A stretch of DNA of 64,000 bases from NCBI GenBank assembly GCA_021835845.1, contig JAKBJU010000001.1, positions 12,908 to 76,907 on the forward strand, read 5' to 3'. This DNA is from Pseudomonadota bacterium (GTDB taxonomy: Bacteria > Pseudomonadota > Gammaproteobacteria > Burkholderiales > JABEVD01). Shown here one piece after another: positions 8,821 to 23,096 of the stretch; position 1 is the stretch's first letter; the number at the start of each line of letters is the position of its first letter. Below the pieces are notes generated by a model. It saw only the letters and a list, made by a program, of their open reading frames with translations. It had not been told where the DNA came from and made no database searches. The position numbers and the translations under genes are program-made.

Positions 8821-9285
8821 TTGAAAAGAAAGCAGCTAGATCGTACTCTTTTAGATTGGATTAAATCAGAAGGAGGGCGTAACGCAATACCTGAGACTGC
8901 ATTGGATGATCATGTGGTTCTTGGTCGATTTAATGCTGGCATGCTAGCTATCCTAAAATGCGTTGATTTAGAGATTGTTACCTCCGTAGCAGTTTTGGAT
9001 AAAATGCTGTTCGATCATGGTATTAGCATTAATAAATTAGAGCGGTTACATAGCCTGATCTGCTCTCCCATAAAAGTCTATCAATCTGCGACACAATCAA
9101 CTTCTGTTGTAATAATGACAGTTGAACTTCACCGAGGAAAACCTATTCTGCTACCAATATGGTTAAATAAACCGGGGGCTACTGGAAAACCGCCTATGCA
9201 TTGGCTATCAAGTGGCTATACGAAGGATAATCCAAATTGGCAGTCAACTTGGGATTCTAAAGGTCTGTTGCTTTGGCAGAAATAA
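8821..9285 (+). CDS. Hypothetical protein in the AT-rich cargo pocket
   Basis: 154-aa ORF with a TTG start after AAGGGGG. Local GC is much lower than the rest of the island. No motif recognised with confidence. Confidence 0.45.
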   Translation: MKRKQLDRTLLDWIKSEGGRNAIPETALDDHVVLGRFNAGMLAILKCVDLEIVTSVAVLDKMLFDHGISINKLERLHSLICSPIKVYQSATQSTSVVIMTVELHRGKPILLPIWLNKPGATGKPPMHWLSSGYTKDNPNWQSTWDSKGLLLWQK

Positions 9286-9491
9286 AAAAGCCTCAGTGTG
9301 TGGATACCGAAGCTCTAATTGCTGAAGTATTTGTCACACCCCTAAGGCTCTTCAATCCTAGTCAAAAATTTCTTAGTTGTCAAAGTAATTTATACACAAC
9401 CAGTACGCCACCGCATACAATCTGTCTGTATCCATCTGATTATAACGGTAAATCTCCTGTAGTGTGGGGCGGCTTCCCGCCCCTGGCTGAT

Positions 9492-9884
9492 TTAAGCTGC
9501 TCTTTTCTTCTTCGAAGCGCTCGAAGCAGCTGCGACTGCGCGTTGAAGGTCTTGCTCGGCGAGGATGAACGGGTAAAGTTCTGACTTTTCACCTGCGGTC
9601 AGCAGCTCCAGAGTGTTCCGCACCTCTTCGCTGTCGCCGAGAATCGAAACAATCTGGTCATCGATCACGCGATTTTCGAAGTCGTCTGCATGATTCAGGA
9701 GCTTGTTCGCGAGGCGGCGGCATTCGGTCGGGGTGATATCTGATTGGAAACTCACCCCGGCTGTCCGGAGCCCAATCACCGAAACCAATGATCCTCTGTC
9801 ATTGTGCCAGCTGGAAAGGCTGACCTCGGATTCGTATCGGCGGCCCTTTTCCAGCGCGATTTCTCTGTTGTGAAAATCACTCAT
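9492..9884 (-). CDS. Hypothetical protein
   Basis: 130-aa ORF convergent with 8821-9285. Acidic with a K-rich tail. No recognised domain. Confidence 0.5.
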   Translation of the reverse strand: MSDFHNREIALEKGRRYESEVSLSSWHNDRGSLVSVIGLRTAGVSFQSDITPTECRRLANKLLNHADDFENRVIDDQIVSILGDSEEVRNTLELLTAGEKSELYPFILAEQDLQRAVAAASSASKKKRAA

Positions 9885-9927
9885 GATGTCTCCCTTCGTT
9901 GTTGAAAAAGTGTTTTAAAACAGTTTG

Positions 9928-10077
9928 TCATGCTCTCGCGAAACCATTAACTTTCAGGTCTGCGAGCTGCACCAGCCCCAGCACGATTTCGAAAACCGTT
10001 CCGGCGTCGTTGAGTGCCGGGCTCACGGTTCCGAGAGCCGCTACAGTCATGCTCAAAACGATCAATACGGTTTTCAT
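9928..10077 (-). CDS. Small exported or membrane peptide (49 aa)
   Basis: ATG 10077 preceded by GAGGAG. MKTVLIVLSMTVAALGTVSPALN looks like a signal peptide. Sits in an operon with 10089-10364. Confidence 0.35.
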   Translation of the reverse strand: MKTVLIVLSMTVAALGTVSPALNDAGTVFEIVLGLVQLADLKVNGFARA

Positions 10078-10088
10078 GTCTGGTCTCC

Positions 10089-10364
10089 TCAAGCGGCTTG
10101 GAATGCCGCGATTTGTTCGATTCTGGCGCTCCCCTGGCGCTGGCCGAAGAGTCGAATAACCCCTGCTGCCGCAATCGCTTTTGCCCCTTCCCACCCCCTG
10201 CGCTTCGCGCCGGTTTCCAGAGCTGCCAGATTGTGCGCTGTCGGTTTCACGTGAATCATAACTTGTTGATTTTGTGCGCTTTTACCTGCCTGTTGGTGAG
10301 CCTCGCGGGGGGCGCCCGAAGGGGGCGCGGTTTTGATGGTTTCCGGTTTGTTTCGAGTCGCCAT
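10089..10364 (-). CDS. Hypothetical protein, possible ribbon-helix-helix DNA binder
   Basis: 91 aa. GGAGG RBS 8 nt upstream of ATG 10364. VMIHVKPTAHNLAALETGAKRRG resembles an RHH strand-helix. Weak call. Confidence 0.45.
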   Translation of the reverse strand: MATRNKPETIKTAPPSGAPREAHQQAGKSAQNQQVMIHVKPTAHNLAALETGAKRRGWEGAKAIAAAGVIRLFGQRQGSARIEQIAAFQAA

Positions 10365-10832
10365 TTTTCGTCCTCCCTTTTCGTTTGCCTGCCTGTCGGA
10401 GCCGCCTCACCCTGATTTCCGGAAGGAGCGCGGGAGGTAAGCGAAAGCAAGGGGGGCATGACAGACGGAAAAAGCGAAAAACGGAATACCGGAGGCCGAA
10501 GGCCGAGGATATGCCGGATTTTCGCCCGGCTGGCGTGACGCCTTGCCATTGAGCGGGCGCGAGGGAAGGAAATAGGGTGGCTCCGAGAGGTAGGCCGAAA
10601 AGGGCCAAGGACGTGGGCGACTCGAAACGGTCTACCGGAAACACCGCGCTTGCGCGGGCGCTGCGAGGCGAAGCAACGGCAGCGCGAAGAGCCCGCCCGC
10701 TTGCGGGCGACGGCCTGGGGGGTTCCCCGCCCTCGGGCGGGGGTTGGTTTCACCAAAGGATACCTATGGTTAAGCGGCTTGCTGCTCCGCTAGTCTTCGT
10801 TCGGAAGCATGATCGTTATGAGCGGCAAGGGG

Positions 10833-11102
10833 TTAGGCCGGTCTGAATTTAAGCCGGAGAGCGACAGCGAGCCAGGCGACATTTGCGGAAATCCTGACCG
10901 ACGAAAAGACAATGGTGAGGGGCTGGTGAAGTGATGGATAGATATATCCAACTTCCCAAGCTCCCCAGAGCACATACCATGCCCATGCGATCCAGTTGAT
11001 GCCGCGAATTTCTCCATCTGCTCGAAGCTTGAAAAAGTTGGTCCAGGCGAAATATGCGCCGCCCGCTTCAAGCGTACTGTTAATCAAATCTGGTATGGTC
11101 AT
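10833..11102 (-). CDS. Small integral membrane protein
   Basis: 89 aa. Trp-rich hydrophobic segments. Immediately downstream of ardC. Confidence 0.45.
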   Translation of the reverse strand: MTIPDLINSTLEAGGAYFAWTNFFKLRADGEIRGINWIAWAWYVLWGAWEVGYIYPSLHQPLTIVFSSVRISANVAWLAVALRLKFRPA

Positions 11103-11152
11103 GGTGATACCCTTTCAAGAAAAAAAGGGCGGATTTCTCCGCCCGGTTTCCA

Positions 11153-12016
11153 TCATGCTGCGGCTTGCTGCTGCTCCTGAAATGCCATGATGTAGCCGTG
11201 CGCCTTGCTGGCCTGACTTGCTGCGGTGAAAATCGCCCGCTTGTCGTTCTTCAGTACCTTGAGCCACGAATCGATATAGCTTGCATGGTTGGGAATCTGC
11301 GAAGCGATAAACCCGGTTTCAGCATTGAGAAACGCGCTTCCAAGCTCCGCTACCAGTTCCTCGAATGCGTAAGCCTCGCTTCCGAATCTGCCGGAAAAGT
11401 CGCGGTTAAGGCGGTGCTTCGCTCCCGTCCAGTGGGTGAGTTCGTGGAGCGCCACGCTGTAGAAATCCTTGGCGCTGGCAAATCTGGCACGCTCCGGCAT
11501 GGTGATTTCGTCGGTCGAAGGACGATAAAAAGCCTTCTGTCCGGTCTCGTTGATCTTCGCGCCTGACGCCTTCAGGATCGCCTCGGCGGCCTCTACCTGC
11601 TCCCATTCGGTTCTGACGGTTGCGGCTGCTGGCCTCTCGATGCCGTCGATCTGGTCGAGGTTGAAAACCCAAAAAGGTGAGGCCATCGGGATTTCTTTCT
11701 CTTCTTCGGTTTCCTTGTCCAGGATTTCGAGCATCTTGAAATAAACGCAAAGCTCGCCTTTCTCGCCCTTCCTGACCTGTCCGCCAAGCTCTGCGGCTTG
11801 CTTGTAGGTCAACCATGCGTTGCTGCTGTAGCCGTTCGCTCTCGCTGCGCTCCAGAGAATCAGGGTGTTTATGCCGCGATAGGCTGCGCGGGTCTTATGG
11901 TTGATCGGCATGCCTCCTGCCGCGTCCTGCGTCCAGGTGATGCCCTCGCCCGTCGCGTTGGCCTCGATTGCGGCAATGATCGAATCGGTGATTTGCTGGT
12001 AGAGATCGGTTTTCAT
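11153..12016 (-). CDS. ardC: ArdC-like antirestriction protein (ssDNA-binding N-domain plus zincin metalloprotease)
   Basis: 287 aa. N-terminal DUF1738/ArdC pattern (YRGINTLILW, WLTYKQA..LGGQVRKGEKG) and C-terminal HELTHWTG zinc motif. Confidence 0.9.
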   Translation of the reverse strand: MKTDLYQQITDSIIAAIEANATGEGITWTQDAAGGMPINHKTRAAYRGINTLILWSAARANGYSSNAWLTYKQAAELGGQVRKGEKGELCVYFKMLEILDKETEEEKEIPMASPFWVFNLDQIDGIERPAAATVRTEWEQVEAAEAILKASGAKINETGQKAFYRPSTDEITMPERARFASAKDFYSVALHELTHWTGAKHRLNRDFSGRFGSEAYAFEELVAELGSAFLNAETGFIASQIPNHASYIDSWLKVLKNDKRAIFTAASQASKAHGYIMAFQEQQQAAA

Positions 12017-12124
12017 GGTCTAGCTCCTTGGTCGGTTAAAAGTGATGCTCTCGACCTGAAAGCTCTCTTCGCCTTCCCCTGTGGGGGACGGGAGGGGGAG
12101 ATAAAGACGTTTGCGGAGAATGAC

Positions 12125-12144
12125 AAAAACCGGGATTTTCCCGG
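12125..12144 (-). terminator. Rho-independent terminator-like hairpin upstream of ardC
   Basis: Minus strand reads CCGGG-aaaat-CCCGG followed by TTTTT. Separates the 12330-12629 gene from ardC. Confidence 0.6.
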
Positions 12145-12329
12145 CTTGCTTGTGATGCCCACGATCAGTTCCCCCTTCGCAAATCGACAGGGGGCTGATC
12201 CAGTGGGTATGCAATGACGGGAAGCTGGTGAGCTCGAAGCGGGTAAACGGCGTGATTTTGCTTTCTTGAGGCTGACCCCATGCGCGGCCCGAATGCCAGC
12301 CTTGCGCTGGCGTGATGGGCGCGGGAAGC

Positions 12330-12629
12330 CTAGTCGAAATCGATTTGAACCGCCCGGATCGAGCGTATGCGCTGGTCCGGGAAAGGGATGATTTCGGCTT
12401 GTTGAAGCTGTTGAAATTGCTGCAGCTGGTATTGGTTGCGGATTCCCGCCTTTTGCTGTTCCTCGACTTCGTGCCTGACAATAAAGAAGAGAGCGGCGGC
12501 CCTCATCGCGCCAAGCCATGCGAGAAGCGCGATGAAGCTCCATAAGCCGTGAGTTTTCGGCAAAATGTAGGCTATTGCGCCGGTCAGAATTGAAGCGGTT
12601 GCGACGACTTGAAGAAAGCGCGAAAACAT
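12330..12629 (-). CDS. Membrane protein, hypothetical
   Basis: 99 aa. Two hydrophobic helices then a Q-rich tail. Start overlaps the upstream stop (TGATG). Confidence 0.5.
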   Translation of the reverse strand: MFSRFLQVVATASILTGAIAYILPKTHGLWSFIALLAWLGAMRAAALFFIVRHEVEEQQKAGIRNQYQLQQFQQLQQAEIIPFPDQRIRSIRAVQIDFD

Positions 12630-12877
12630 CAGTCTAGCTCCTTGAATTTTTTCCAGAGAATGCAGGTTTTCTCGGTTGCCCAGTCCGCGAATCTCGAATT
12701 GAGCGCGTCGAGAAAGCTCCTACGCTGTTGCTGTTGTGCTGGAGCGGGGAGAGAAACCGTCCCGGTCCCGCCGGTTGCAAGCGCCTTGAGGTAGGCGCTC
12801 GCGGTCAAGCCTGCTGCGAGCGCCCGAGATTCGAAAGCCTGGGCCTCGTCGTCCGTGAAATCGATTGAGAGTTTCAT
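12629..12877 (-). CDS. Ribbon-helix-helix-like protein (MobC/CopG-like fold)
   Basis: 82 aa. MKLSIDFTDDEAQAFESRALAAGLTASAYLKALA fits strand-helix-helix. ATGA coupling with the upstream gene. Confidence 0.5.
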   Translation of the reverse strand: MKLSIDFTDDEAQAFESRALAAGLTASAYLKALATGGTGTVSLPAPAQQQQRRSFLDALNSRFADWATEKTCILWKKFKELD

Positions 12878-13647
12878 TGCGCCGCTCCGGGGTAGCTCAA
12901 TTCTTGCTGGGTGGTTTGCTGCTCCGCTGCCTTCGCCTTCAAGTAAGCCTGCATTGCAGCCGCTTTGTCTTCGGTGTTCTGCGCCTGCCCCTGCGCCTGC
13001 GCTTTCGATTGAGCGACAAGCTGATTGAGCGCTCCGTTCTCATCGATCAGCATTGCCGACATTTGCGCATTCTGGCTTGCAAGCGTCTGGAAGCCTTGGA
13101 CGTTGCCCGAAATGTTCGGGATTTGCTGTGCAAGTGCCGTGACGGCCTGCGACTTGTTTTGCAGGTCGGCGAGGTTCGCTTGAGTTGTTTTAAGCTGGTC
13201 GCTGTACACCTTGTTTCCGGCTGCGGCCTGCTGCGCGACATAGCCGTAGTATTGGTTGGGCGTCATGCCCAGCCGGGTCATCGTCGCAGCGTCCACGGAA
13301 ATGTTCTGCGTGACATTGTTCGCTGCGGCTTTCAGGTTGAGCAAGTCCTGGGCCATCGCGGCGTAACCCTGCACCCCGCCCATGCCTGCGCCCGCCTTCG
13401 CCATTGCGCCAAATTGCTGCACGTTTGCCGCCGCCCCCTGAAGGTTCTGCACCTGCGCCTGATACTGCTGCAGCTGAGTAATGTACTGCTGCAACTGGGT
13501 CGCCTGGATGCCTGCCTGCTGCGCGACGGATGCGACAAGCTCCGCATTGTTGGCAAGCTGGGTAATTTCGGTCGCCCCGCCCGTGACCCCACCCCCGGCG
13601 AATGCGGGAGCGGAAACGAGAAGAAGAAGAGAAAGGATTTTTTGCAT
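12874..13647 (-). CDS. Secreted Q-rich coiled-coil protein, TrbJ/VirB5-like
   Basis: 257 aa. Signal peptide MQKILSLLLLVSAPAFA, then ITQLANNAELVASVAQQAGIQATQLQQYITQLQQYQAQVQNL, which resembles the TrbJ/VirB5 N-terminal pattern. Family not verified. Confidence 0.5.
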   Translation of the reverse strand: MQKILSLLLLVSAPAFAGGGVTGGATEITQLANNAELVASVAQQAGIQATQLQQYITQLQQYQAQVQNLQGAAANVQQFGAMAKAGAGMGGVQGYAAMAQDLLNLKAAANNVTQNISVDAATMTRLGMTPNQYYGYVAQQAAAGNKVYSDQLKTTQANLADLQNKSQAVTALAQQIPNISGNVQGFQTLASQNAQMSAMLIDENGALNQLVAQSKAQAQGQAQNTEDKAAAMQAYLKAKAAEQQTTQQELSYPGAAQ

Positions 13648-13702
13648 GATGACTCCTTTTGGAAGGGTGATGGGGACAGTCTAAACCGCCCCCGGAAATC
13701 CA

Positions 13703-14659
13703 TTATTTGCCGGGCTTGCCGGGCATTTGCAGCTGCATCACGGTATTGGTCGGGTCGGGCGTGAGCGATTGCGAGAGTCCTCCGAAAAGTCGTCCGGTGA
13801 TTTGCGTCGCGTTCAAAATCAGGCCGAGGATCGCGAGGCTCAAGATCGACACGAAAATCATGAGGACCGTTGTCGGCATTGTCGATGAGCCGGTCTGGCC
13901 TGCGATTACGCCGATTTCGGTCACGATGTCGAGACAAAGCATGATGAGCACGCCGAGAACCGGTTTGTAAAAAATTGCGCCGACGAAAAAACCGATCCAG
14001 TTGCCCATCATCGACCGCAACTTGCCGATGATCGAGAGCGCAAGAATGATCGGGCCGAAGCAGAGGGCCAAATATATGACCACGTTTGCGATGAGCAGAC
14101 TGGCCCAGCATGCGGCCATAGCGCCGACGAGAATTGCGACTGCTGACATCATCACGACAAATGAACTAATCGAGTCAACAGCGGTAAGCAAGCTGCTTCC
14201 GAGGATCGCGAAGATAGAAGACGCATTCGAAGCGTTCGAAGCGTTCTGCGCGATGGACTGCGAAGACGGGAAAATCGAAGTCGAAATGGCTTTGACTGCG
14301 GGCGAAAAGTTCGCAATGACGAGATGTCCAAGTCCTTCCGACGTTTGCCCTCCGGTCGCGGCTTTAACGAGGTCGTCTGCGACAGACATAGCCGGATCGA
14401 CCGCGAGGGTTTGCCAGTGAAGAATGATTGCAGCAATCGCAATCGACGGGATGACGGCTTCGAAAAGCCGCTTCATCGCGCCTTTTCCGTCGTTTGAAAG
14501 CAAGATGACAAGGGCCGCGACAATCTCGAAGATGACCGCCGCGACAAAGACTTTTTCGGTCGTGTCCGAGGTTGCGAAGTTCATTGCAAAGGCTTTACCG
14601 TGCGTGTCAACGGTCGAGAAAACTTGATCGAGGACGGTGAAATCGAGGTACATGGTCAT
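13703..14659 (-). CDS. Polytopic membrane protein, TrbL/VirB6-like
   Basis: 318 aa from ATG 14659 (GAAGGAG RBS, ATGA overlap with the upstream gene). Five to six TM segments and a hydrophilic tail. Adjacent to the VirB5-like gene. Family not verified. Confidence 0.5.
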   Translation of the reverse strand: MTMYLDFTVLDQVFSTVDTHGKAFAMNFATSDTTEKVFVAAVIFEIVAALVILLSNDGKGAMKRLFEAVIPSIAIAAIILHWQTLAVDPAMSVADDLVKAATGGQTSEGLGHLVIANFSPAVKAISTSIFPSSQSIAQNASNASNASSIFAILGSSLLTAVDSISSFVVMMSAVAILVGAMAACWASLLIANVVIYLALCFGPIILALSIIGKLRSMMGNWIGFFVGAIFYKPVLGVLIMLCLDIVTEIGVIAGQTGSSTMPTTVLMIFVSILSLAILGLILNATQITGRLFGGLSQSLTPDPTNTVMQLQMPGKPGK

Positions 14660-14973
14660 GCTCCTTCGGTCGAGATGTGGACGCGGTGGTGATGCGCGAC
14701 ATGGTGCATGTGCGCCGCTGCATGCTGCGGTTTTGCTGGCGGCTGGGGGTGAACCGGGCCGTGGGTCAGCATTGCAAGTTCCATGAAGATGCCGAAAACG
14801 CCGACTGCTGCGAAGAGCTTGAGGTAGGGCCGGAAAATTATGTAGATGACGCCAGCGCCTGCGCAAATTGCGAGCGAGAGGGTGAAGCCTGCCCATGGGG
14901 CGCAGCCGAAGAAGAGGACCAAAAGTGCGGCAATCTTGACGTAAGTCGTTTTCTTGAATTCAGGCATTTTCAT
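14656..14973 (-). CDS. Small membrane protein with a His-rich C-terminal tail
   Basis: 105 aa. Three hydrophobic segments. Tail reads PQHAAAHMHHVAHHHRVH. Confidence 0.5.
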   Translation of the reverse strand: MKMPEFKKTTYVKIAALLVLFFGCAPWAGFTLSLAICAGAGVIYIIFRPYLKLFAAVGVFGIFMELAMLTHGPVHPQPPAKPQHAAAHMHHVAHHHRVHISTEGA

Positions 14974-15243
14974 GTTGTTTCTCCATTTTCGACCCGGCTT
15001 CCCGCCGTATGAATCGCGTTTTGTTTCGGCAAGGGAGGAAAGGCAAGAAATTCGACCGAAGCCGCAGCCCGAAGGGACCGGGTGACGGCGAACCCGAAGG
15101 GGGCGAAGCCTTACTTGCTTTTCCGAGCGCCGAAACGATCTTTGCGATTCGGGGCGGGATGCAGGGCGAAGGAGAATTGAAAATCCAAATTCAAAGACGC
15201 CCTGGTGCCGCTTGATTCATCTTCCCATGCGCCTGGGATACCA

Positions 15244-15471
15244 CTATTCGTGGGTGTCGAGCACGCGGAAAGCGTCTTCTGTGAATTCGGCTAAAGCTGC
15301 ATCGCCTCGGGTCAGCGCGTGAATCTGGATTGCTGCCAGCACGGCCTCAAGGTCAAGCCCGGCATCTTGTCGCAAAACCCGGATTGCAGAGTGCAGCGGA
15401 TTTGCGGGAACCCCAAGCTCACGAAGTCGTGCATGTCCGAGGTCTTGAGATGAAGTCAGAGTTGTTTCCAT
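15244..15471 (-). CDS. Hypothetical protein
   Basis: 75-aa ORF with a weak AGGA RBS. No recognised domain. Confidence 0.4.
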   Translation of the reverse strand: METTLTSSQDLGHARLRELGVPANPLHSAIRVLRQDAGLDLEAVLAAIQIHALTRGDAALAEFTEDAFRVLDTHE

Positions 15472-15480
15472 GATTTTTCC

Positions 15481-15507
15481 TTTCGAAAACCCCGCCCGAG
15501 GGCGGGG
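15481..15507 (-). terminator. Rho-independent terminator after the lipoprotein gene
   Basis: Minus strand reads CCCCGCC-ctcg-GGCGGGG followed by TTTTCG, 13 nt after the stop at 15520. Confidence 0.65.
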
Positions 15508-15519
15508 GGTGGGTGGGTT

Positions 15520-16326
15520 TCAGGGTAAAACGATGGTGTCGCCGACGCGGGGGGCCGTCGGCGTGACAACCGAGCCAGTGCCGCCCGCAAAGCGCTCGTA
15601 ATCGACCCGATAGCCGTCCGTCACGTCGCGGGTGACGTTGTGACACGTCGTGGTGGGCGTGTGCTGGATGTGGTCGCCGGTGAGCGCCCCGACAATAGCG
15701 CCGAGGGCTGCGGCTGCGACTCGTCCGTTTCCGTTGCCGATTTGAGACCCGGCCATGGCTCCGGCTGCGCCGCCCAGCCCGGCCCCCAGGTACTGGGGAT
15801 TTGTCGAGTTCTGCTGCTCGCAAACCTGCTGACTGACCTGGTGCGTGATGGGCACGACATCGATGACGCGGGCTGCATGCTGCCGAGCCTCGTTTGCGTT
15901 CGCGATCACGTCGGGCGGAAGCTGCTCGTCCTGCCGTGCCTCATGACGTGGACGGTGAGCTTCGCGGTGCTTGTGCTCCTTCGGCTTTTCCTCTGCCGGT
16001 GCTGCTGCCGGGGCGGAAGCTGCGGCCTGCCCTGCCCTGGCTTGCTGCAAAAGCTCGGAAAACTGCTCTTGCGTGAGCGTTACCTGGCCGGGACCCGATG
16101 CGACGGGGGCGGAGGCAGGAGCCGAAGCCGGGACCACGGCGGAAGCTGCAACGGGAGCCGAAACAGGCGCGGGAGCCGCCGGGACCACGGCGGAAGCCGG
16201 GGAAAGCGTGAGCGCCGAAGCCGGAGTCTTGGCCGGGGCGGTGGAGCCGCCGCCGAAGATTCCGGGCATGTCGCAACCGGCGAGGCCGATAGTCGCGAGA
16301 GCGACGATGAGAGCGGTTTTCTTCAT
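15520..16326 (-). CDS. Lipoprotein with Ala/Pro-rich linker and glycine-zipper (17-kDa antigen-like) domain
   Basis: 268 aa from ATG 16326. Lipobox LAGC. GAGLGGAAGAMAGSQIGNGNGRVAAAALGAIVGALTG glycine zipper. Confidence 0.7.
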   Translation of the reverse strand: MKKTALIVALATIGLAGCDMPGIFGGGSTAPAKTPASALTLSPASAVVPAAPAPVSAPVAASAVVPASAPASAPVASGPGQVTLTQEQFSELLQQARAGQAAASAPAAAPAEEKPKEHKHREAHRPRHEARQDEQLPPDVIANANEARQHAARVIDVVPITHQVSQQVCEQQNSTNPQYLGAGLGGAAGAMAGSQIGNGNGRVAAAALGAIVGALTGDHIQHTPTTTCHNVTRDVTDGYRVDYERFAGGTGSVVTPTAPRVGDTIVLP

Positions 16327-16327
16327 G

Positions 16328-16834
16328 TTACTGTCCTTTCGTGGTTTGAGGGATGATGAGGATCGCGCAAGCCGGGTCGCCAATCAGGTGTTGCGAGAGC
16401 TGCGCCCGCGCTTGAGCCAGCGGTTGAATGCATTGGCTTTTGACCGTAAAGCTCTTGTTGACGAGTGGCGCGGTGATGAGCGCCTGGCCGCCTGCTTGTT
16501 GCTTGATGAAGACCGGAGAAAAAGCTGTCTGCTGGTCCGTCGCTATGATCTCGTGGCAGCCGTATTTCTGCGCTGCCGCTTTGATCGCCGCATTCGTCGC
16601 TTCGCGGCTCGTCATGGTGCAGCCGAGGAGCACGGTTTCATGTGCCTGCGCGGGCTTCGCGCCTGCGGCGAGTGCGGCGGGAAAAGTGACCTCGACCGTC
16701 TTTCCGTCGCGGTTCGGTATGATGATCACGGGTGCGACGGCTGTCGCTTCTGTGCCGCCGGTCTGCGGGCTCTGCGCGCAACCTGCGACGATTCCCGCAA
16801 GTGCGAGTACGGCGATGGGTGTGAATTGTTTCAT
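16328..16834 (-). CDS. Lipoprotein, hypothetical
   Basis: 168 aa from ATG 16834 (AAGGAG RBS). Lipobox IVAGC. Confidence 0.65.
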   Translation of the reverse strand: MKQFTPIAVLALAGIVAGCAQSPQTGGTEATAVAPVIIIPNRDGKTVEVTFPAALAAGAKPAQAHETVLLGCTMTSREATNAAIKAAAQKYGCHEIIATDQQTAFSPVFIKQQAGGQALITAPLVNKSFTVKSQCIQPLAQARAQLSQHLIGDPACAILIIPQTTKGQ

Positions 16835-16887
16835 GTCTGCTCCTTTTTCGATGTGACAATCCAGTGTCTCACTGGTCCGAAAAACGA

Positions 16888-17661
16888 CTATTCGCGGTCG
16901 TCGGCGAAAAACCAGACGCCCCGGAAGCATTCGCGGTTTCGAATGCGGCGGTCAGCGAAGACTTCGCGAAGCGCTTCCGACTTGTGAACGATGCATTCGC
17001 CGTGGACCGAATCGTATAAACCGTTTACAGTGTTTTGGCCGTCGTAATAATTGCCAGCGGGCGAGTAGTCGGAAAGGCTCCAGGGCATTACTGCTGCGCC
17101 GAAACGCGGATTTTTCGGGTCGCGCACGTAAAGGCTGGGACAAACCCCGCGCTTCTCCCGGTCGCGTCCGTCGCTGAAATCGAAGAGCGACGGGATGAAA
17201 CAGATCGGAGAAACCGAGAAAGTGTTTTCTGTCGCAACCGAATCAGCGGCCACAATCTTTCCGGGGTGAGCGCCGTCCGGAAAAAACTCCATTGGTTCTA
17301 TATGGATTGCGAGTCGAGCCGTGGGCGGTGGCGGCGTCAAGCTGCGCGGCTGAGCTTGTGCCTGAATCCGCAACTCCGTAGCTTGATGCTGGTCGGCGAA
17401 GAGTCCGCCGGTCGCCGGTGTTGCGGCTGCTGGCTGAGCGGAAGCGGGAGCGTCGGGGTCTTGAAGGCCAAAAAAGAAGTAGTAGCCAAGTTTCTTTTCC
17501 CAGTGCGGTGCGGGCCCGAAGAAAATTCCGGTGGTGCTGTTGCCCTGGTCGCTGGTCGTCGCGCTCTTCGAAGAGAAAAGCGAGGATGCGCCGAAGGCGA
17601 TGACCGCGACGGCAATTCCGAGCGCTGCGAAACTCAGAACGGTTTGTGTTTTCTTGTCCAT
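16888..17661 (-). CDS. Exported or membrane-anchored hypothetical protein
   Basis: 257 aa from ATG 17661. N-terminal signal anchor (VLSFAALGIAVAVIAFGASSLF). C-terminal Cys-containing domain of unknown family. Confidence 0.55.
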   Translation of the reverse strand: MDKKTQTVLSFAALGIAVAVIAFGASSLFSSKSATTSDQGNSTTGIFFGPAPHWEKKLGYYFFFGLQDPDAPASAQPAAATPATGGLFADQHQATELRIQAQAQPRSLTPPPPTARLAIHIEPMEFFPDGAHPGKIVAADSVATENTFSVSPICFIPSLFDFSDGRDREKRGVCPSLYVRDPKNPRFGAAVMPWSLSDYSPAGNYYDGQNTVNGLYDSVHGECIVHKSEALREVFADRRIRNRECFRGVWFFADDRE

Positions 17662-17766
17662 GTCCTTTTCCTTTCCGGGGGCAGCGCCCCCGCTGTTGAG
17701 AGATGGGGGGCAGCGCCCCCCCCGTCTTGCCGCGACGCTCAATGCGTCCCGGACTCCGGGAAACTG

Positions 17767-18051
17767 TCAGCGTCCAATGCCTTTAATCGCTCCGAAAACA
17801 ACTTCTGCAAGCCATTTCGCGAAGCGAAAGAGCCACTTCGCGGGCAAAATCAGGCCGTCAAGGCCGCCCTGCCATGCGCGGTGCCACTCGCCATGACGGA
17901 TGCCGGAAACCAGAAAGCCGCCGACGAATGTGAGGCCCGAGGCCATTGCGAGGATTGCGAAGCCCTGGGGCGTGAAGGCAATCTGGATCGCGCCGAGGAA
18001 TACGCGGATTGCGATGATGAAGCCGAAAAGCATCAAGCCGAGGCGAATCAT
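17767..18051 (-). CDS. Small membrane protein
   Basis: 94 aa from ATG 18051. ATGA overlap with the upstream 64-aa gene. Three hydrophobic segments. Confidence 0.45.
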   Translation of the reverse strand: MIRLGLMLFGFIIAIRVFLGAIQIAFTPQGFAILAMASGLTFVGGFLVSGIRHGEWHRAWQGGLDGLILPAKWLFRFAKWLAEVVFGAIKGIGR

Positions 18052-18242
18052 TTGAGCTGCCCTCCCGTTTTTTCGATTGCTGATTTGAGGAATTCGAGCG
18101 CATGGTCTGCCGAAATCGGCAGGGTTCCGCCGGTTTTCGTCCAGATGAAGATCATCAAATAGATGCCACCGATTCCGCAGGAAAGCGCGAACACGATGCG
18201 CCAGATGAAGGGCATGGAAGATTGTTGAGTTTGAGATGCCAT
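18048..18242 (-). CDS. Small membrane protein
   Basis: 64 aa. One TM (FIWRIVFALSCGIGGIYLMIFIW). First gene after the Replic_Relax-like gene. Confidence 0.45.
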   Translation of the reverse strand: MASQTQQSSMPFIWRIVFALSCGIGGIYLMIFIWTKTGGTLPISADHALEFLKSAIEKTGGQLK

Positions 18243-18245
18243 TTG

Positions 18246-19019
18246 TTAAGCTCCTTTCTTCTGTGCGAATTTCGAATAAGAGAAAAAGGCGAATCGAGCG
18301 CGATGAGAATCCGTCACCTTGACGTTTTCGCCTTCGAACCGGATGGTTTCGACCCGCGCAAAAGCTCGCTCTACAAGCTTTTCGAGGCCGTCGGGGCAAA
18401 CGTAAGCGACAAAAGCGTAGCGCCCTGCTTTAATCGATTTGAGATGCGCGAGCAGCACAGATTCATACCGCCGGGGGGTCTTGATGGTCCTCTCGATCTC
18501 GATTGCGACTCGGTCGCCCTTCGGGCTTGTGGCGATGAAATCGGGGATTTTTTCCGAGTCCTTGCCTTTCCCTTTCGCTGCCGTTCGCTCCCTGGGCGAT
18601 TCCTGCATTTTCTGCAATCGCTCGGGCACGAATGCGGTCCAGCCTGCGGCTTCGGCCTTGATCCGCATGCGCTGGCCGTCCAGTTTGTGAGCGAGAAATG
18701 CCGGGGACGTGCGCCCGAGTTCGTGGAAAGGCATGTCCCATTTGTCGATGAGCGCGAGGCCATGCGGGGTGATGCCGTAGATTTTCGATTTCCGGCCCGC
18801 GTTCTCTATTTCTTCCGACTTGAGCGCACCGTCGCGCTCCAGGCCGCCGACTGTGGATTGTGCGGCCCGTCGGCTGCATTGCAGCAGCAATGCGGCGATT
18901 TCAACGGTCGAGAAGACTTCGCCAGATGCGAGGAAATCAAGCAGTATGCGGCGTTTCGCTTCTGCGCGAGCCTGCTTTTCAGCGTAAGTCATGGCCGGGA
19001 GTCGTTCTGTTTTTTCCAT
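18246..19019 (-). CDS. wHTH plus PD-(D/E)xK-like protein, replication-relaxation (Replic_Relax)-like
   Basis: 257 aa from ATG 19019 (GGAG 9 nt upstream). The ORF could extend to 19040. N-terminal wHTH (ILLDFLASGEVFSTVEIAALL...ERDGAL), H-containing middle (FLAHKLDGQ), PDFIATSPKGDRVAIEIERT core. Confidence 0.6.
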   Translation of the reverse strand: MEKTERLPAMTYAEKQARAEAKRRILLDFLASGEVFSTVEIAALLLQCSRRAAQSTVGGLERDGALKSEEIENAGRKSKIYGITPHGLALIDKWDMPFHELGRTSPAFLAHKLDGQRMRIKAEAAGWTAFVPERLQKMQESPRERTAAKGKGKDSEKIPDFIATSPKGDRVAIEIERTIKTPRRYESVLLAHLKSIKAGRYAFVAYVCPDGLEKLVERAFARVETIRFEGENVKVTDSHRARFAFFSYSKFAQKKGA

Positions 19020-19091
19020 TTCTTCATCTCCAAAAAACACAATTCAATTTTCCCATGCGTTCGAAAAACCATTGTTTGCCGAGCCGCCTTT

Positions 19092-19165
19092 CCCGCGAAG
19101 CGGGTTAGTCCGGCGCGTGAGCGCCTGGGGGTCTCGCGAAGCGAGTTCGGGGCTCGCGAAGCGAG
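19092..19165 (+). repeat. Cluster of four mini-hairpins (three GCGAAGC-core, one GTGA-loop)
   Basis: cccGCGAAGCggg 19092-19104, GGCGCgtgaGCGCC 19112-19125, ctcGCGAAGCgag 19133-19145 and again at 19153-19165. Confidence 0.8.
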
Positions 19166-19212
19166 TAAATTGATGGTCCGGCGAAATGGGGCGGGTCTCC
19201 CGCCCCTGGTGG

Positions 19213-21024
19213 TCAATCGAAGCTGATTGTCTCGGGTTGGTCGAGGTCGAGGCCGTCGGTCTCGACTATGCGCGAAGTCGCGGGCGGCAAGTCGAACGGT
19301 GCTTTCTCGGTGCCCGAATCGAGCGCGACGGACTCGGAAGCGCTCTTCAAGCTCGCCCCTTCAACCTCGCGAATTGCGATTGCTTCTGGCGACTTCGCGA
19401 CTCTCAGCGGTCGAATCGAAACGAATTTCGGAAGTCCGCTTCCATACAGAACCGCTACCGATGCGGGCAGATTCAACAGCATGTTTTCATCAATGAAATA
19501 GCGCTCGGCTTGTCGAATCGACCTGCGAGCATCGACGGTTTCAGAGAGAGCCAGATTCCGCTCAACCGTCCGGCTCTCGTCGTCCACGAGGATCTTCCCG
19601 GACATGCTTGCAAGCCATTCGGCTGTGACCGGGGATTTAACCTGGTAGCAGAGCTTGACGCGGCAATTCTCAACGACAGCATCAACGACAGCATCAGGGT
19701 TGAGATCCTTGGTGCAGTCTTTCAAGTCGCCCAAGCTCTGGTGAGCAAGGATCAGGTGGACACCTTTGTCGCGAGCGGCCCCCAGTCCTTCAAGCGCTGG
19801 GCGGGAAAGGTGGTATTTCACTTCGTCAAGGACAATACAGATTTTGCGAAGTTCTCCGGCCATGCGGTCGCGCCGTTCGGCAAGCTGCAACAAGCGCACA
19901 AGCAAGATGCGCTGCGCGGTCTTCACGATGTCGTTTCGCATCGATCCGACGATGTAGACACATCCGCCGTTTTCGATAACTTCGGCGAGCGATACGCCCC
20001 CAGCGGTCGCGTTGATCGACGGTGTTTCGGCCATTTCGCGCAGCTTGCCGTAGAACTTCTCGGCTTCGCCTACCTGGTCTTTTCGCGCCTCGAAAACCTC
20101 AGCGATGGTTAGATTTTCAGCGGCCATTTGCCGGGCGGTCGCAAGTGCTTCACGACGATCTGCAATGCCGTAGAAGTCGCTGGCGTCGCCTTTCTCGATC
20201 AAGCTGAACCCGGCTTGAAACAACTCGAAAGCTTCATCAGCCGTTGCGCCTTCGAATGGGTTAAACTGCGCCCCGTTCGGGCGGTTGAGGTTGATGTAGT
20301 AATACGGCTTGCCGGTTCGCTGTGCTGCGGCATGCATGACCGATGGAGCCCACTCGTCGTTTTTCGGGTCGCAGAAAAAAACTGCTTCTCCGCGCTCAAG
20401 GAATTGAGACGCCATGACGCCCAGGCTCACGCCTTTACCCGCTCCGGTCGTGCCGACCACCTGAACGTGAGGCGCGGAAGTGCCGCCGCCGAATTCGATG
20501 TAGATAGGTTTTTTCTTCTCGTCCAGGCCGAGAAAAACGCCCTTGCTCTTATCAAGAAATTTCACCGGATCGAACGCGGCGGCGGAATCAGGAAGGTGCT
20601 TTTCGATCTCGCGAACGTCGGTCTTTCTGTTCCGCTCGCGCTCACTCGTAACCGTAGCCTTGCCTTTGAGCTTGTCGATTGCTTGGACGCCATCGCGCAG
20701 AAGAAAGATAGCGCCCGCGATTCCCGCTGCTGCGGAAATAATGAAAATGCCTATATCCAGCCAGCCGGGAAACAAAGTCGGAACGGTCCCGTCATCCCGA
20801 GGATAAAAAGTTACTTTCGAGAGCGTTGGGATAACAAAAAGGATTGCGAGCGCTGCCCATGCTGGCAGCGAAAACAGAGAGAAAAGCCGGGATAAAAAAC
20901 CTTCTTTGTTCTGCGCTTTTCGGTTATGCGAGAGGATTAAAAAGCCGAAACCAAAACCGAAAAAGCGGAGAGCGTGGAATGCCAAAAGCAGGCAGCCGAG
21001 CACGTAGAAATTCAGAACTTGCAT
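19213..21024 (-). CDS. Type IV secretion coupling protein (TraD/TraG/VirD4 family)
   Basis: 603 aa from ATG 21024 (AGGAGG RBS). N-terminal TM helices, Walker A VVGTTGAGKG, Walker B CIVLDEV, AHQSLGDLKD. The upstream part of the 668-aa ORF is rejected. Confidence 0.85.
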   Translation of the reverse strand: MQVLNFYVLGCLLLAFHALRFFGFGFGFLILSHNRKAQNKEGFLSRLFSLFSLPAWAALAILFVIPTLSKVTFYPRDDGTVPTLFPGWLDIGIFIISAAAGIAGAIFLLRDGVQAIDKLKGKATVTSERERNRKTDVREIEKHLPDSAAAFDPVKFLDKSKGVFLGLDEKKKPIYIEFGGGTSAPHVQVVGTTGAGKGVSLGVMASQFLERGEAVFFCDPKNDEWAPSVMHAAAQRTGKPYYYINLNRPNGAQFNPFEGATADEAFELFQAGFSLIEKGDASDFYGIADRREALATARQMAAENLTIAEVFEARKDQVGEAEKFYGKLREMAETPSINATAGGVSLAEVIENGGCVYIVGSMRNDIVKTAQRILLVRLLQLAERRDRMAGELRKICIVLDEVKYHLSRPALEGLGAARDKGVHLILAHQSLGDLKDCTKDLNPDAVVDAVVENCRVKLCYQVKSPVTAEWLASMSGKILVDDESRTVERNLALSETVDARRSIRQAERYFIDENMLLNLPASVAVLYGSGLPKFVSIRPLRVAKSPEAIAIREVEGASLKSASESVALDSGTEKAPFDLPPATSRIVETDGLDLDQPETISFD

Positions 21025-21905
21025 TGCTTCCTCCTGAAAATGAAATTGCTTCTCTAGGATCGCATGGGAAAGAAATACCACTAAATTGAGCGGTAAGCAT
21101 GGGTTAAAGCGCACCTTCGATTCCGTAGATGCGCTCGAAATCGTGTGGCTTGGCTGTGACGGCAAGGCGCAGCCGCGCAGCCCGAAGGGCGAAGGCAAGA
21201 CGGACTCATCGTCGCGCAAGTCGCGGTGATTTTTCGCGACTGAAGGGGGACCGGCGAAGCCGGGGCAAGACGCAGACCGAAGGTCGTCGCGTCGAGCCTC
21301 CGAGGATCAGCGAAGCGGTCCGAGGATCGGGGGGAGCCATGAGTCCCGAAGGGACCGAAGCCAGCCAGCGTCGAGTAAGGACGGCTTCATCGTCCGCACC
21401 GAGACCTGGATGGGCATGGGGGGCGAAGCCCCGGCGACCCGAGCGCGAAGCGCCAAGGGTCCAAGGTGCACTCTCCGAGCCTCGCTTTTTTGCGAGCGCA
21501 GCGAACAAAAAAGAAGAGAAGAGAGTGCTCCGCAGGACCCGCAGCCCTCCGGGGTCTTTGAGCGAAGCGAAAAAGACTCTGGAGGGGCGGGGTCGAGCGG
21601 TGGAAGGACCGGCGAAGCCGGGACTGGAAGCGCTCGACCCCGCCCGTCCAGCGGACGGGTCGGGTCGCCCGCTTTTGACGTGCCCCTGGGACTGCGACAG
21701 CAGGCCAGGAAGAGCCGCCGCGTCCAGCGGCGAAGCGATTCCGGCAGGGGATGCCTTTGACTTTGCTTGTGTTTTTGACTTTCCCAAAGTCAAGCCCGAA
21801 ACACTTAAGCGCATCATGAATATCAGAGTGCGCTAATGGTCGAAGCTGAAATCACACATGAAATGTATCGATTTCGGTGAGACGAAGAAGCCCCGCGAGA
21901 AGCCC

Positions 21906-21953
21906 CCACGAGAAGCCCCATAGTCCCGGCGCTTCTTCCGGGGCTTCTCGTGG
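21906..21953. repeat. 14-bp inverted repeat (CCACGAGAAGCCCC / GGGGCTTCTCGTGG) with a 20-nt spacer
   Basis: Read directly. Preceded by two more direct copies of GA(A/G)AAGCCCC at 21884-21906. Confidence 0.8.
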
Positions 21954-21976
21954 AGCTACTCGACACGAAAAACGCC

Positions 21977-22004
21977 AAAAAGAAAGCCCGGAAAAATCCG
22001 GGCT
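21977..22004 (-). terminator. Rho-independent terminator of the 22032-22223 gene
   Basis: Minus strand reads AGCCCGG-attttt-CCGGGCT followed by TTCTTTTT, 28 nt after the stop. Confidence 0.7.
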
Positions 22005-22031
22005 TAGAGGCGGGGAGAGTGCGGGGAAAAT

Positions 22032-22223
22032 TTAGGCGGGGCGGCTGGGATTTTCGCGAGCGATTTCAGCGAAAGCTGCGAGTAAAACATCGTCGGGGAG
22101 ATGCAGGATTTTTGCTTTTTGAGCGAGAGCGAAAATCGATTCTTTCCGAGCTTCGTCTTTCTGCGCTTGCGCGATTTGCTTTTCGAGATCGTCGCGTTTT
22201 TTCAGAAGAGTTTCGAGCTTCAT
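22032..22223 (-). CDS. Small coiled-coil protein, RSF1010 MobC / Ti TraD-like architecture
   Basis: 63 aa with AAAGGAAAG RBS. KKRDDLEKQIAQAQKDEARKESIFALAQKAKILHLPDDVLLAAFAEI parallels the coiled-coil plus LxAAxxxxL layout of RSF1010 MobC. Weak call. Confidence 0.4.
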   Translation of the reverse strand: MKLETLLKKRDDLEKQIAQAQKDEARKESIFALAQKAKILHLPDDVLLAAFAEIARENPSRPA

Positions 22224-22256
22224 GGTTCTTTCCTTTCGTCGTGAAAATTGAAAAAA

Positions 22257-22535
22257 TCAGCGGGCGTTTTTCCAGCCGCTGGCTTCAGCCGCATGAAAAT
22301 CCTGGATCGATTTCGCGGTGGGTGAGAGGTAAGCTCCGAGCAGCATTCCAGCCCCGAAAATCGATGCGACGATCAGCACGCGGTTAAAGATGACCAGCGC
22401 CTTGAAAAGCCGAAGCCGATTCCTCATCCTGCGGAGAGTGGCCGCTGAAATCGGCTTGCCGTCGGCGTCGAGATGAGGGAAAAGCTCTTCATGGAGAAAA
22501 GACGATGTGCCTTTTCGAAAGTAACGTTCATGCAT
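22257..22535 (-). CDS. Membrane protein, hypothetical
   Basis: 92-aa ORF with one TM (ALVIFNRVLIVASIFGAGMLLGAYL). Overlaps the upstream gene by 8 nt. Confidence 0.4.
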   Translation of the reverse strand: MHERYFRKGTSSFLHEELFPHLDADGKPISAATLRRMRNRLRLFKALVIFNRVLIVASIFGAGMLLGAYLSPTAKSIQDFHAAEASGWKNAR

Positions 22536-22752
22536 TGCGTGGCTCCTTTCCGTCGATGATGCGTTCTTGAAAAATTCGGGAAATCATGTCGCGCTGCTTC
22601 TCCGAAAGATGAATTCCGGTGTCGGGGTCTTCGCCGTATTTCTCAAGCCGCTGCGCCTGGTCGGCGATGTAGGATTTCTCCCATGCGCTCAGCTTGTCCG
22701 TCTGAGCTGAGAGCGTGCGGATTTTGTCGAAAATTGAAACTGGTTCGGTCAT
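22528..22752 (-). CDS. Hypothetical protein
   Basis: 74 aa from ATG 22752 (GGAG upstream). Helical and acidic. Confidence 0.4.
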   Translation of the reverse strand: MTEPVSIFDKIRTLSAQTDKLSAWEKSYIADQAQRLEKYGEDPDTGIHLSEKQRDMISRIFQERIIDGKEPRNA

Positions 22753-22894
22753 GATGTGGCTCCGGTGGTTGAACATAGAATCATTCTCGGGTAAATTTTC
22801 CAAACCACTAAATTGAAACTTTTCTGGTTGATGCGATGGGCTCCGTGCCAACCAAACTTTCAACTCATGAGCCTAAAAATTGGAGGGAAAAAAC

Positions 22895-23092: not shown

Positions 23093-23096
23093 TTTT

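Follow-up and report, generated by a model that had tools for sequence, protein, structure and literature searches.

An island integrated at tRNA-Cys

We analysed a 64-kb window of DNA from an uncultured Burkholderiales bacterium (contig JAKBJU010000001.1). Positions follow the numbering of this window and L-numbers denote the loci compared with it. Our subject is an island at 7637–26291. Its minus strand encodes a type IV coupling protein (T4CP), a MobC-family relaxase and homologues of the mating-pore subunits TrbL and TrbJ. A first-pass annotation, made from the letters alone, had described 11153–21024 as a set of transfer genes. That interval does lie inside a mobile element, but covers only part of it. 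The true extent is defined by a 47-bp exact direct repeat, TGGAGGCGGGGGTCGGAATCGAACCGGCGTCCACGGCTTTGCAGGCC, found at 7637–7683 and 26245–26291, with copies 18,608 bp apart. The features of the two ends are as follows.

7637–7683, no strand: attR, a 47-bp exact copy of the 3′ part of tRNA-Cys at the distal end of the island
7743–8747, plus strand: tyrosine recombinase (integrase), PF00589, E 4e-28, adjoining attR
26245–26318, minus strand: intact tRNA-Cys, of which the 3′ 47 nt (26245–26291) are attL

Given the repeats, the tRNA gene and the neighbouring integrase, this is an element of 18,608 bp with typical tRNA-targeting att sites. The integrase probably starts at the ATG at 7767. This gives a protein of 326 aa, the length also called in L004, that is 53% identical to the integrase of L012, a Thiothrix element. 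The G+C fraction falls to 0.48–0.53 toward the integrase end. Housekeeping genes form both flanks: tRNA-Gly, uvrC, lepA, the PNPase gene, infB and nusA on the right and a nif cluster on the left. 'Burkholderiales bacterium' metagenome-assembled genomes encode the proteins that match these housekeeping products at 90% identity or more. Rfam identified two tRNAs only in the window. In a megablast search of the whole island against plasmids the tRNA repeat was the sole match. By its genes alone, the island has what defines an integrative mobilizable element (IME): an integration module with att sites, mobilization genes and an incomplete mating-pair formation (MPF) system.

The left flank (180–7392) is a nitrogen-fixation cluster with genes for a NifS-like aminotransferase, a NifB-like radical SAM protein, a ferredoxin and a NifA-like sigma-54 activator. 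The island is thus lodged between nif genes and a tRNA-Cys/tRNA-Gly pair.

A coupling protein gene followed by mobC

Two adjacent genes account for DNA processing.

19213–21024, minus strand: T4CP, MobB/TraD-like, with Pfam domains T4SS-DNA_transf, TraG-D_C and TrwB_AAD_bind and three N-terminal transmembrane (TM) segments
18246–19019, minus strand: MobC-family (MOBC) relaxase, 257 aa, matching NF041423, with a predicted N-terminal winged helix and a probable PD-(D/E)XK-like domain

The T4CP matches PF02534, PF12696 and PF10412, and NCBIfam SXT_TraD at 78.8 bits. VirB4 models reach no more than 23 bits. Walker A and Walker B motifs are present, with three hydrophobic segments in residues 1–102. 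Judged by its sequence, the protein is a T4CP-family NTPase with a membrane anchor and not a VirB4, as had been annotated. It is 45–53% identical to T4CPs that adjoin mobC on conjugative plasmids of the MPF_T type, which carry a separate VirB4. Identity to the T4CPs of small mobilizable plasmids is 32–34%. The CloDF13 protein MobB, with three N-terminal TM segments, supports mobilization through the R388 channel without TrwB, that is, through a foreign MPF_T channel lacking its own T4CP (PMC7431656). Hence, there is a functional precedent for an element that brings its own T4CP.

The first-pass annotation had seen no recognisable relaxase and had postulated a non-canonical one. The first statement is refuted and the second needs correction. 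The product of 18246–19019 matches NCBIfam NF041423, 'MobC family replication-relaxation protein' (MobC_subf), with 179 bits (under the curated NCBI cut-off of 200) and E 8.7e-53; residues 18–257 align to positions 6–239 of the 240 in the model. The match to Pfam Replic_Relax is weak (19.8 bits). In tblastn searches MobC matched 1209 plasmid records, 596 of them with at least 80% of its length covered. The best plasmid matches are annotated mobC genes, with 32–36% identity over more than 80% of the length, and the plasmid records inspected were typed MOBC by MOB-suite. All plasmids inspected share the arrangement of the island, with mobC immediately after the T4CP gene. These plasmids include the mobilizable Acinetobacter pAYTCM-4 and a mobilizable 8.8-kb Enterobacter plasmid with a Rop protein, a ColE1-type feature. 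The same pair occurs on an Aeromonas plasmid with trbB, trbC, trbD and trbE and on Pectobacterium pPA21A, with VirB2 through VirB11. MOBC, typified by CloDF13 MobC and pAD1 TraX, is an established MOB family, non-HUH and related to PD-(D/E)XK restriction endonucleases; TraX carries an N-terminal winged helix (PMC12857230). The family is detectable with standard hidden Markov models (HMMs). HMM searches had been proposed as a check for an overlooked VirB4 or relaxase; those with Pfam and NCBIfam recovered the relaxase and no VirB4.

Conservation and modelling agree with this assignment. Residues K22, E34, H111, Q116, P159, D160, E174, E176 and K180 do not vary among 63 homologues, nor in a second alignment with plasmid MobCs among its sequences. 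Hence, the PD...ExE...K residues (P159, D160, E174, E176 and K180) are common to island and plasmid proteins. An AF2 model built from the 63-sequence alignment (pLDDT 88.6, pTM 0.85) consists of a winged helix and then an alpha-beta-beta-beta-alpha-beta unit. P159 and D160 are placed before the second strand, E174 in the third, E176 just after it and K180 just before the next helix. In a Foldseek search of the PDB the model retrieved PadR/MarR winged helices with probability 1.0, and the MobC family profile matches PDB entry 5zhc (E 1.3e-4). Against PDB sequences, profiles of the MobC, TrbL and TrbJ families gave winged-helix matches only. From its sequence we place 18246–19019 in the MobC/replication-relaxation family, and the model predicts a clear N-terminal winged helix. 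The nuclease fold is supported but not proven, since the Foldseek nuclease matches are weak.

TrbL and TrbJ in an island without VirB4

Two further genes encode homologues of mating-pore subunits.

12874–13647, minus strand: TrbJ/VirB5 homologue with a signal peptide, 35–36% identity to Burkholderia TrbJ; dN/dS 0.076 against L019
13703–14659, minus strand: TrbL/VirB6 homologue with about six TM segments, PF04610 at 27.0 bits against a cut-off of 25.9; dN/dS 0.059 against L019

The TrbJ-like protein has no Pfam match, and the NCBIfam TrbJ model reaches only 19.5 bits. It aligns with NCBI-named TrbJ proteins at E 1e-21 to 1e-22 and 35–36% identity over 76–88% of its length. One of these, P0008, is encoded in the complete operon of L008, which comprises SLT, TrbB, TrbC, TrbD, TrbE (894 aa), TrbJ, a 94-aa protein, TrbL, TrbF, TrbG and TrbI. 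Pairwise BLASTP against operon-encoded TrbJ gives E 8e-29. Compared with TrbJ of the IncP-1 plasmid R751, the family profile has an hhalign probability of 91% (E 1e-6).

PF04610 is carried by six of the seven detectable TrbL-like homologues, and the family profile aligns to the TrbL of complete operons with an hhalign probability of 96.6% (E 6e-10, 280 columns). A profile search of 1.84 billion representatives gave 42 matches, five at E 1e-30 or better. All ten distant matches tested also match PF04610 at E 2.5e-5 or lower, nine of them above the cut-off. The earlier VirB5/TrbJ-like and VirB6/TrbL-like calls therefore hold: by sequence comparison, the two proteins are true homologues of subunits in complete Trb operons. 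An AF2 model of TrbL from an 8-sequence alignment reached a pLDDT of only 39.7.

No similarity to R751 TrbL was found, and tblastn searches with TrbL and TrbJ against 72,556 plasmids returned zero matches. Hence, the two genes represent a rare TrbJ/TrbL lineage and not an IncP-1 derivative. Scans with the TrbL profile found one locus in genome contigs and one in metagenome contigs, which again marks the subfamily as rare.

Pfam and NCBIfam scans covered every plausible open reading frame (ORF) from one att site to the other. None matched VirB4/TrbE, VirB11/TrbB, VirB8, VirB9 or VirB10, and VirB7 was not found among them. VirB4/TrbE, VirB11, VirB8, VirB9 and VirB10 had no match anywhere in the 64-kb window, and the large ORFs outside the island are housekeeping genes. 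Counted from an ATG, no ORF between the att sites is longer than 603 aa. The only credible Walker A motif is GTTGAGKG at 20454, within the T4CP. With no VirB4-type match and a single P-loop, the first inventory and its statement that VirB4, VirB11 and VirB9/10 are missing are confirmed, as is the T4CP as sole Walker A protein. PMC4027160 describes VirB4 as the sole protein present in all classes of type IV secretion systems (T4SSs). Thus, the VirB4-family ATPase and mating-pore core of a self-transmissible T4SS, or of an integrative conjugative element (ICE), are not encoded here. Most likely the island is not self-conjugative and borrows the secretion machine of another element.

Relatives, selection and modularity

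L012, a contig of a Thiothrix metagenome-assembled genome, holds a complete element. It is 12,145 bp long, and an exact 51-bp repeat of the 3′ end of tRNA-Thr marks its two ends (77–127 and 12222–12272). Its genes encode a primase (36% identical to that of the island), T4CP (67%), MobC (46%), a 69-aa ORF, TrbL (44%), TrbJ (39%) and the integrase (53%). VirB4 was not found in this complete element. In L015 the T4CP, MobC and TrbL are 69%, 47% and 42% identical. Among the complete examples of the design that we found, L012 is the smallest. Within it, a stretch of about 49 nt recurs at 2503–2551, 3742–3790 and 5624–5672, upstream of three gene blocks that include T4CP and MobC, and may be a shared promoter or operator.

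TrbL and TrbJ also occur next to other DNA-processing genes. Two metagenomic contigs, L006 (3021–6614) and L014 (3519–7058), carry a glycine-zipper lipoprotein, a small ORF, TrbL (40–43%) and TrbJ (36–39%). There, this cassette adjoins a TrwC (MOBF) relaxase-helicase of 1180–1197 aa and a T4CP without BLAST similarity to that of the island. In all, the cassette is kept at only 40–44% amino-acid identity across at least five lineages, and a variable small gene precedes trbL in all these islands.

The close relative L019 allowed selection to be measured. Its envelope proteins are 84–96% identical to those of the island, at dS 0.4–0.9. dN/dS is 0.059 for TrbL, 0.076 for TrbJ and 0.06–0.18 across all envelope genes, so that the cassette is under strong purifying selection. 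The T4CP and MobC (18246–21024 against 362–3211 of L019) are only 58% and 52% identical. Set against 84–96% for the envelope genes, these values indicate that the T4CP-MobC pair has been swapped as a unit.

Three further loci, L020, L021 and L022, encode relatives of the integrase, T4CP and MobC, accompanied or not by a primase and an AlpA-like gene. Together, these comparisons show at the sequence level a base design of integrase, T4CP and MobC, to which a conserved and selected TrbL-TrbJ cassette has been added that appears movable between T4CP-relaxase modules.

A candidate origin of transfer

Upstream of the T4CP gene and beside the primase gene lie non-coding features.

21340–21432, minus strand: candidate origin of transfer (oriT), a conserved non-coding block that precedes the T4CP start by about 350 nt
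23097–23169, no strand: paired GC-rich hairpins downstream of the primase gene, identified by folding
24097–24169, no strand: paired GC-rich hairpins upstream of the primase gene, identified by folding

The block contains a 32-mer, CTCGGTGCGGACGATGAAGCCGTCCTTACTCG (21372–21403), that is exact in L015 and matches at 27 of 32 positions in L021, where the spacing between the block and the T4CP gene is similar. For the flanking proteins, identity is only 47–69%. A short inverted repeat, GGACG...CGTCC, lies within the block. We propose with low to moderate confidence that 21340–21432 is the oriT or nic region.

An ORF of 203 aa (21206–21817, minus strand) overlaps this block and yet is annotated by metagenome gene callers. 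Like the 176-aa ORF at 12013–12543 (minus strand), it has no family match, a very biased composition and a GC-rich intergenic setting. Both were rejected as genes and are probably GC-rich non-coding artefacts.

The two hairpin modules (23090–23175 and 24090–24175) have DNA folding z-scores of –3.6 to –4.4, and within the 64 kb their core motif, GGCGGCGATANCCCTATGCCGCC, is confined to them. They might serve as primase recognition (ssi/oriV-like) sites or as terminators.

Other island genes

In the direction of transcription, the minus strand begins with three small genes, a RepB′-type primase, small ORFs, the T4CP, MobC and two small membrane proteins. A 257-aa protein with a hydrophobic N terminus, a 168-aa lipoprotein, a glycine-zipper lipoprotein, a 75-aa protein and a 105-aa membrane protein follow. 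TrbL, TrbJ, a NikA-like ribbon-helix-helix (RHH) protein, a 99-aa membrane protein and ArdC complete the order. All island ORFs are intact and several overlap by 1–4 nt, in line with the intact, translationally coupled operons noted at first. The remaining genes are listed below.

8821–9285, plus strand: cargo ORF with a MuF_C domain (PF18819, E 1.4e-10; phage MuF C-terminal domain), adjoining the integrase
11153–12016, minus strand: ArdC, anti-restriction protein with an ssDNA-binding N-terminal domain (PF08401, 115 bits) and a zincin metallopeptidase domain (PF18818, 176 bits)
12330–12629, minus strand: 99-aa protein with two TM segments by hydropathy; dN/dS 0.14 against L019
12629–12877, minus strand: NikA-like RHH protein, PF21983 at 27.3 bits against a cut-off of 27
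14656–14973, minus strand: 105-aa membrane protein immediately upstream of trbL; dN/dS 0.094 against L019
15244–15471, minus strand: 75-aa protein without family match, present in L019; dN/dS 0.18
15520–16326, minus strand: glycine-zipper lipoprotein, PF05433, E 2.4e-8
16328–16834, minus strand: 168-aa lipoprotein with a lipobox, without family match; dN/dS 0.058 against L019
16888–17661, minus strand: 257-aa protein with one N-terminal hydrophobic segment by hydropathy (TM anchor or signal peptide), without family match; dN/dS 0.062 against L019
17767–18242, minus strand: two small membrane proteins (94 aa and 64 aa) after mobC, by hydropathy
23188–24075, minus strand: RepB′-type primase, PF16793, E 3.5e-18, 36% identical to the L012 primase
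24313–25317, minus strand: three small genes at the tRNA-proximal end, including a weak AlpA/Xis-like helix-turn-helix (HTH) protein (25042–25317) and an HTH_36-like ORF (24313–24678)

ArdC and an RHH-like protein had been named from the letters, and the domain matches agree. ArdC is 52% identical to an ArdC-like gene of the MOBC plasmid pPA21A. The start of the NikA-like gene overlaps the trbJ-like stop by 4 nt, and on its sequence the RHH protein is a candidate relaxosome accessory factor. The small 'MobC/TraD-like' protein also listed at first matched no family in the Pfam and NCBIfam scans; it is perhaps the ORF at 22032–22223, one of the small ORFs without a match at E 0.05 or lower.

Relatives carry a non-homologous small gene in the position of the 105-aa protein. 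We considered whether this protein is a VirB2/TrbC pilin and rejected the idea (hhalign probability 0.6%); no pilin was found in the island. Lipoproteins similar to the glycine-zipper protein occupy the same position in L006 and L014. Small ORFs are also found downstream of mobC in L012, L015, L020, L021 and L022. The AlpA-like match is weak (E 0.0096). L012, L020 and L021 have homologues of the tRNA-proximal small genes, and one of these homologues faintly matches Phage_AlpA. Of ten cargo and envelope ORFs submitted to PADLOC, none was identified as a defence gene. The opposite strand of the island holds a gene for a Pmp3/YqaE-type small proteolipid (22880–23092, plus strand; PF01679, E 6.6e-8).

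A proposed route of transfer and its alternatives

Our interpretation, to which we assign a probability of about 0.75, is that the region is the transfer core of an 18.6-kb IME in the tRNA-Cys of an uncultured Burkholderiales, mobilized through a helper MPF_T system. Briefly, the integrase, perhaps with the AlpA/Xis-like HTH protein, would excise the island as a circle. MobC would nick oriT, for which 21340–21432 is the sequence-based candidate. The T4CP and the NikA-like RHH protein may assist, compare CloDF13 MobB. A conjugative plasmid or ICE in the same cell would supply the MPF_T (Trb/VirB-type) channel, and the T4CP would then dock the relaxosome to it. Since the island brings its own T4CP, that of the helper would be unneeded. 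TrbL and TrbJ, with the neighbouring small membrane proteins and lipoproteins, would replace or join the VirB6 and VirB5 of the helper. The swapped subunits could favour the island T4CP and its substrate, or evade entry exclusion. In the recipient, ArdC and the primase would protect the incoming strand and convert it to duplex, and the integrase would insert the island at tRNA-Cys. An MPF_T helper, Burkholderia Trb-like, is suggested at the sequence level because the conjugative T4CP-MobC relatives are all MPF_T, the nearest operon-encoded TrbJ is from Burkholderia and the host belongs to the Burkholderiales. The identity of the helper, the oriT and the role of TrbJ and TrbL are parts of the route that we infer. 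The first-pass annotation had likewise proposed a mobilizable element that hijacks a helper system. A non-autonomous IME with its own T4CP and VirB5/VirB6-type subunits is the best supported reading, while the premise of a non-canonical relaxase falls.

Several observations weigh against this interpretation. No helper T4SS lies within the 64-kb window; for that reason dependence on a helper is something we infer. The entry of the island TrbJ and TrbL into a helper machine is likewise presumed, and the analogous mating-pore genes of SGI1 are dispensable for mobilization (PMC5704250). The island order, TrbL then TrbJ, is opposite to that of canonical operons. TrbJ and TrbL are absent from the related IMEs L020–L022; as these have T4CP and MobC without it, the TrbL-TrbJ cassette is an optional add-on. 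The candidate oriT has zero plasmid sequence matches and its folding energy and stability are unexceptional. For MobC, the NF041423 score falls short of its curated cut-off and the Foldseek nuclease matches, to NucS/EndoMS, have E of about 0.02.

Some of these points bear on other explanations. The island could be a decayed ICE, a Trb-type remnant in which deletions removed trbB, C, D, E, F, G and I and left TrbJ, TrbL and T4CP behind without a role. CONJscan-style classification labels such loci 'decayed', and a survey of chromosomal MPF_T systems put 26% of them in the incomplete class, mostly for want of virB4 (bioRxiv 10.64898/2026.01.13.699239). The inverted TrbL-TrbJ order could likewise reflect rearrangement. 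However, L012 is complete at 12.1 kb, with intact att repeats, the same gene set and no VirB4. The ORFs, integrase and both att sites of the island are all intact, and dN/dS is 0.06–0.08 for TrbL and TrbJ. The cassette is held at 40–44% amino-acid identity in at least five lineages and joined to two unrelated DNA-processing modules. A deletion remnant would not be expected to be conserved, selected and recombined in this way. We therefore consider decay very unlikely, as the first-pass annotation had also argued. At the other extreme, the island could be a self-transmissible minimal system. With the T4CP as sole ATPase, a channel free of VirB4 would be formed by VirB6 and VirB5 together with the novel envelope proteins (257 aa, 168 aa, glycine-zipper lipoprotein and small TM proteins). 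Nine envelope proteins do lie in one strand block with T4CP and MobC, all under purifying selection, and the family is rare and uncharacterised. Against this, the extra envelope genes have no detectable counterpart in complete L012, which indicates that they are not core. Neither a pilin nor the VirB7, VirB9 and VirB10 outer-membrane core was found, and VirB4 is described as the one protein common to all T4SS classes (PMC4027160). We give this explanation hardly any credence.

A third possibility keeps the mobilizable island but assigns the TrbL/TrbJ and lipoprotein cassette to competition. The proteins would be exclusion factors or poison subunits against related elements, or would lower helper transfer. 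TrbK/Eex exclusion genes normally lie between the VirB5 and VirB6 genes (R751; EexN in pPA21A), a variable small gene is always upstream of trbL in these islands and the glycine-zipper lipoprotein has a faint TraT-like match (E 0.008). The MPF homologues of SGI1 act on exclusion (PMC5704250), and T4CP-MobC IMEs without the cassette imply that it is unneeded for basic mobilization. However, the small proteins match no known exclusion family in Pfam or NCBIfam, and tight linkage to two types of T4CP-relaxase module suggests a role in export. The two roles are compatible; competition as the function of the cassette seems to us improbable.

The export role can be taken further than the IME interpretation does. 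The small gene, TrbL and TrbJ, with or without lipoproteins, might form a portable adaptor cassette that travels with the T4CP-relaxase pair of the given island: a MobB-like T4CP and MobC here, a TrwB-like T4CP and TrwC in L006 and L014. Such islands would replace the substrate-entry platform of the helper MPF_T system (T4CP, VirB6 and VirB5) and so create a chimeric channel dedicated to the island. We offer this as a tentative and rather doubtful idea. If it is true, takeover is more extensive than SGI1 or PIMEs (described below) show, and some 'decayed ICEs lacking VirB4' among chromosomal MPF_T systems are functional hijackers. If the cassette retargets a helper channel, it also offers a route to study how T4CP, VirB6 and VirB5 control substrate specificity and exclusion in MPF_T, and mobilizable islands in environmental Betaproteobacteria and Gammaproteobacteria would then be under-counted.

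Automated pipelines would label the locus a decayed ICE because VirB4 is missing. Our data point to a functional, conserved design, and elements like the island may make up part of the 'incomplete' chromosomal MPF_T class.

Comparison with known systems

SGI1 had been offered as the precedent. It is indeed a mobilizable island that encodes homologues of helper mating-pore subunits. However, its subunits are the MPF_F proteins TraN, TraH and TraG, it has no T4CP and its helpers are IncA/C plasmids. The present island has MPF_T-type subunits, its own T4CP and MOBC. SGI1 is listed without a relaxase (PMC5704250), and a 2026 preprint cites an SGI1 relaxase missed by standard searches (bioRxiv 10.64898/2026.01.13.699239). 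Hence, SGI1 is not the closest system; GISul2, the IncP island, PIMEs and CloDF13 are nearer.

The T4CP-mobC pair is shared with the MPF_T plasmids of Aeromonas hydrophila (NZ_CP095284) and Pectobacterium (pPA21A), where the T4CP is 45–53% and MobC 25–32% identical. pPA21A also shares the ArdC-like gene (52%). VirB2 through VirB11 are seen on pPA21A, examined in full, and TrbB, C, D and E on the examined part of the Aeromonas plasmid, whereas the island holds VirB5 and VirB6 homologues only, of a different lineage.

For the DNA-processing genes, the CloDF13-type MOBC module is a close counterpart. Streptococcus IMEs and a few mobilizable plasmids also combine VirD4 with MobC (PMC5704250). Like the island, the CloDF13-type module and these Streptococcus IMEs have a T4CP gene and then a MobC gene, without a mating-pore ATPase. 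CloDF13 MobB and the island T4CP have the same three N-terminal TM segments. MobC, at 32–36% identity, shares the PD...ExE...K residues with plasmid MobCs. Unlike CloDF13, the island is not a ColE1-like plasmid but is integrated in a tRNA gene by a tyrosine recombinase, and adds TrbL, TrbJ, ArdC, a primase and seven further envelope proteins. Its T4CP is closer to those of MPF_T conjugative plasmids (45–53%) than to those of small mobilizable plasmids (32–34%).

For TrbJ and TrbL, the counterparts are GISul2, which carries TrbJ, TrbK and TrbL only (Guédon et al. 2017, PMC5704250), the Burkholderia glumae IncP island, with a MOBP relaxase, TraJ/TraK, TrbJ and TrbL (PMC5704250), and PIMEs (int, alpA, rep, trbJ, trbL), which are induced and mobilized by IncP plasmids (Perta et al. 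2026, bioRxiv 10.64898/2026.01.12.698999). Like the present element, these are chromosomal islands roughly 20 kb long that carry an integrase, an AlpA-like regulator, a gene related to replication, TrbJ and TrbL, and lack VirB4. The layout of PIME4 is also similar, with the core opposite to the integrase and regulator and replication genes at the far end. However, these islands use MOBP TraI/TraJ/TraK with the T4CP of the helper, where ours has MOBC and its own T4CP. It also differs from the PIME group in its RepB′-type primase, without repA/repC, and in its TrbL-TrbJ order, without an intervening TrbK. The island TrbJ is distant from IncP-1 TrbJ (hhalign 91%, E 1e-6) and its TrbL has no IncP-1 match. 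By the criteria of Perta et al. the island is probably not a PIME.

The island thus unites two described designs: that of the CloDF13 type, MobC with its own T4CP, and that of GISul2, the IncP island and PIMEs, which carry TrbJ and TrbL. Because these systems already establish each principle, the addition to general knowledge is incremental. The present element is set apart by the joining of MobC and T4CP with TrbL and TrbJ, a lineage of these subunits outside IncP-1, their reversed order without TrbK and the seven extra envelope proteins.

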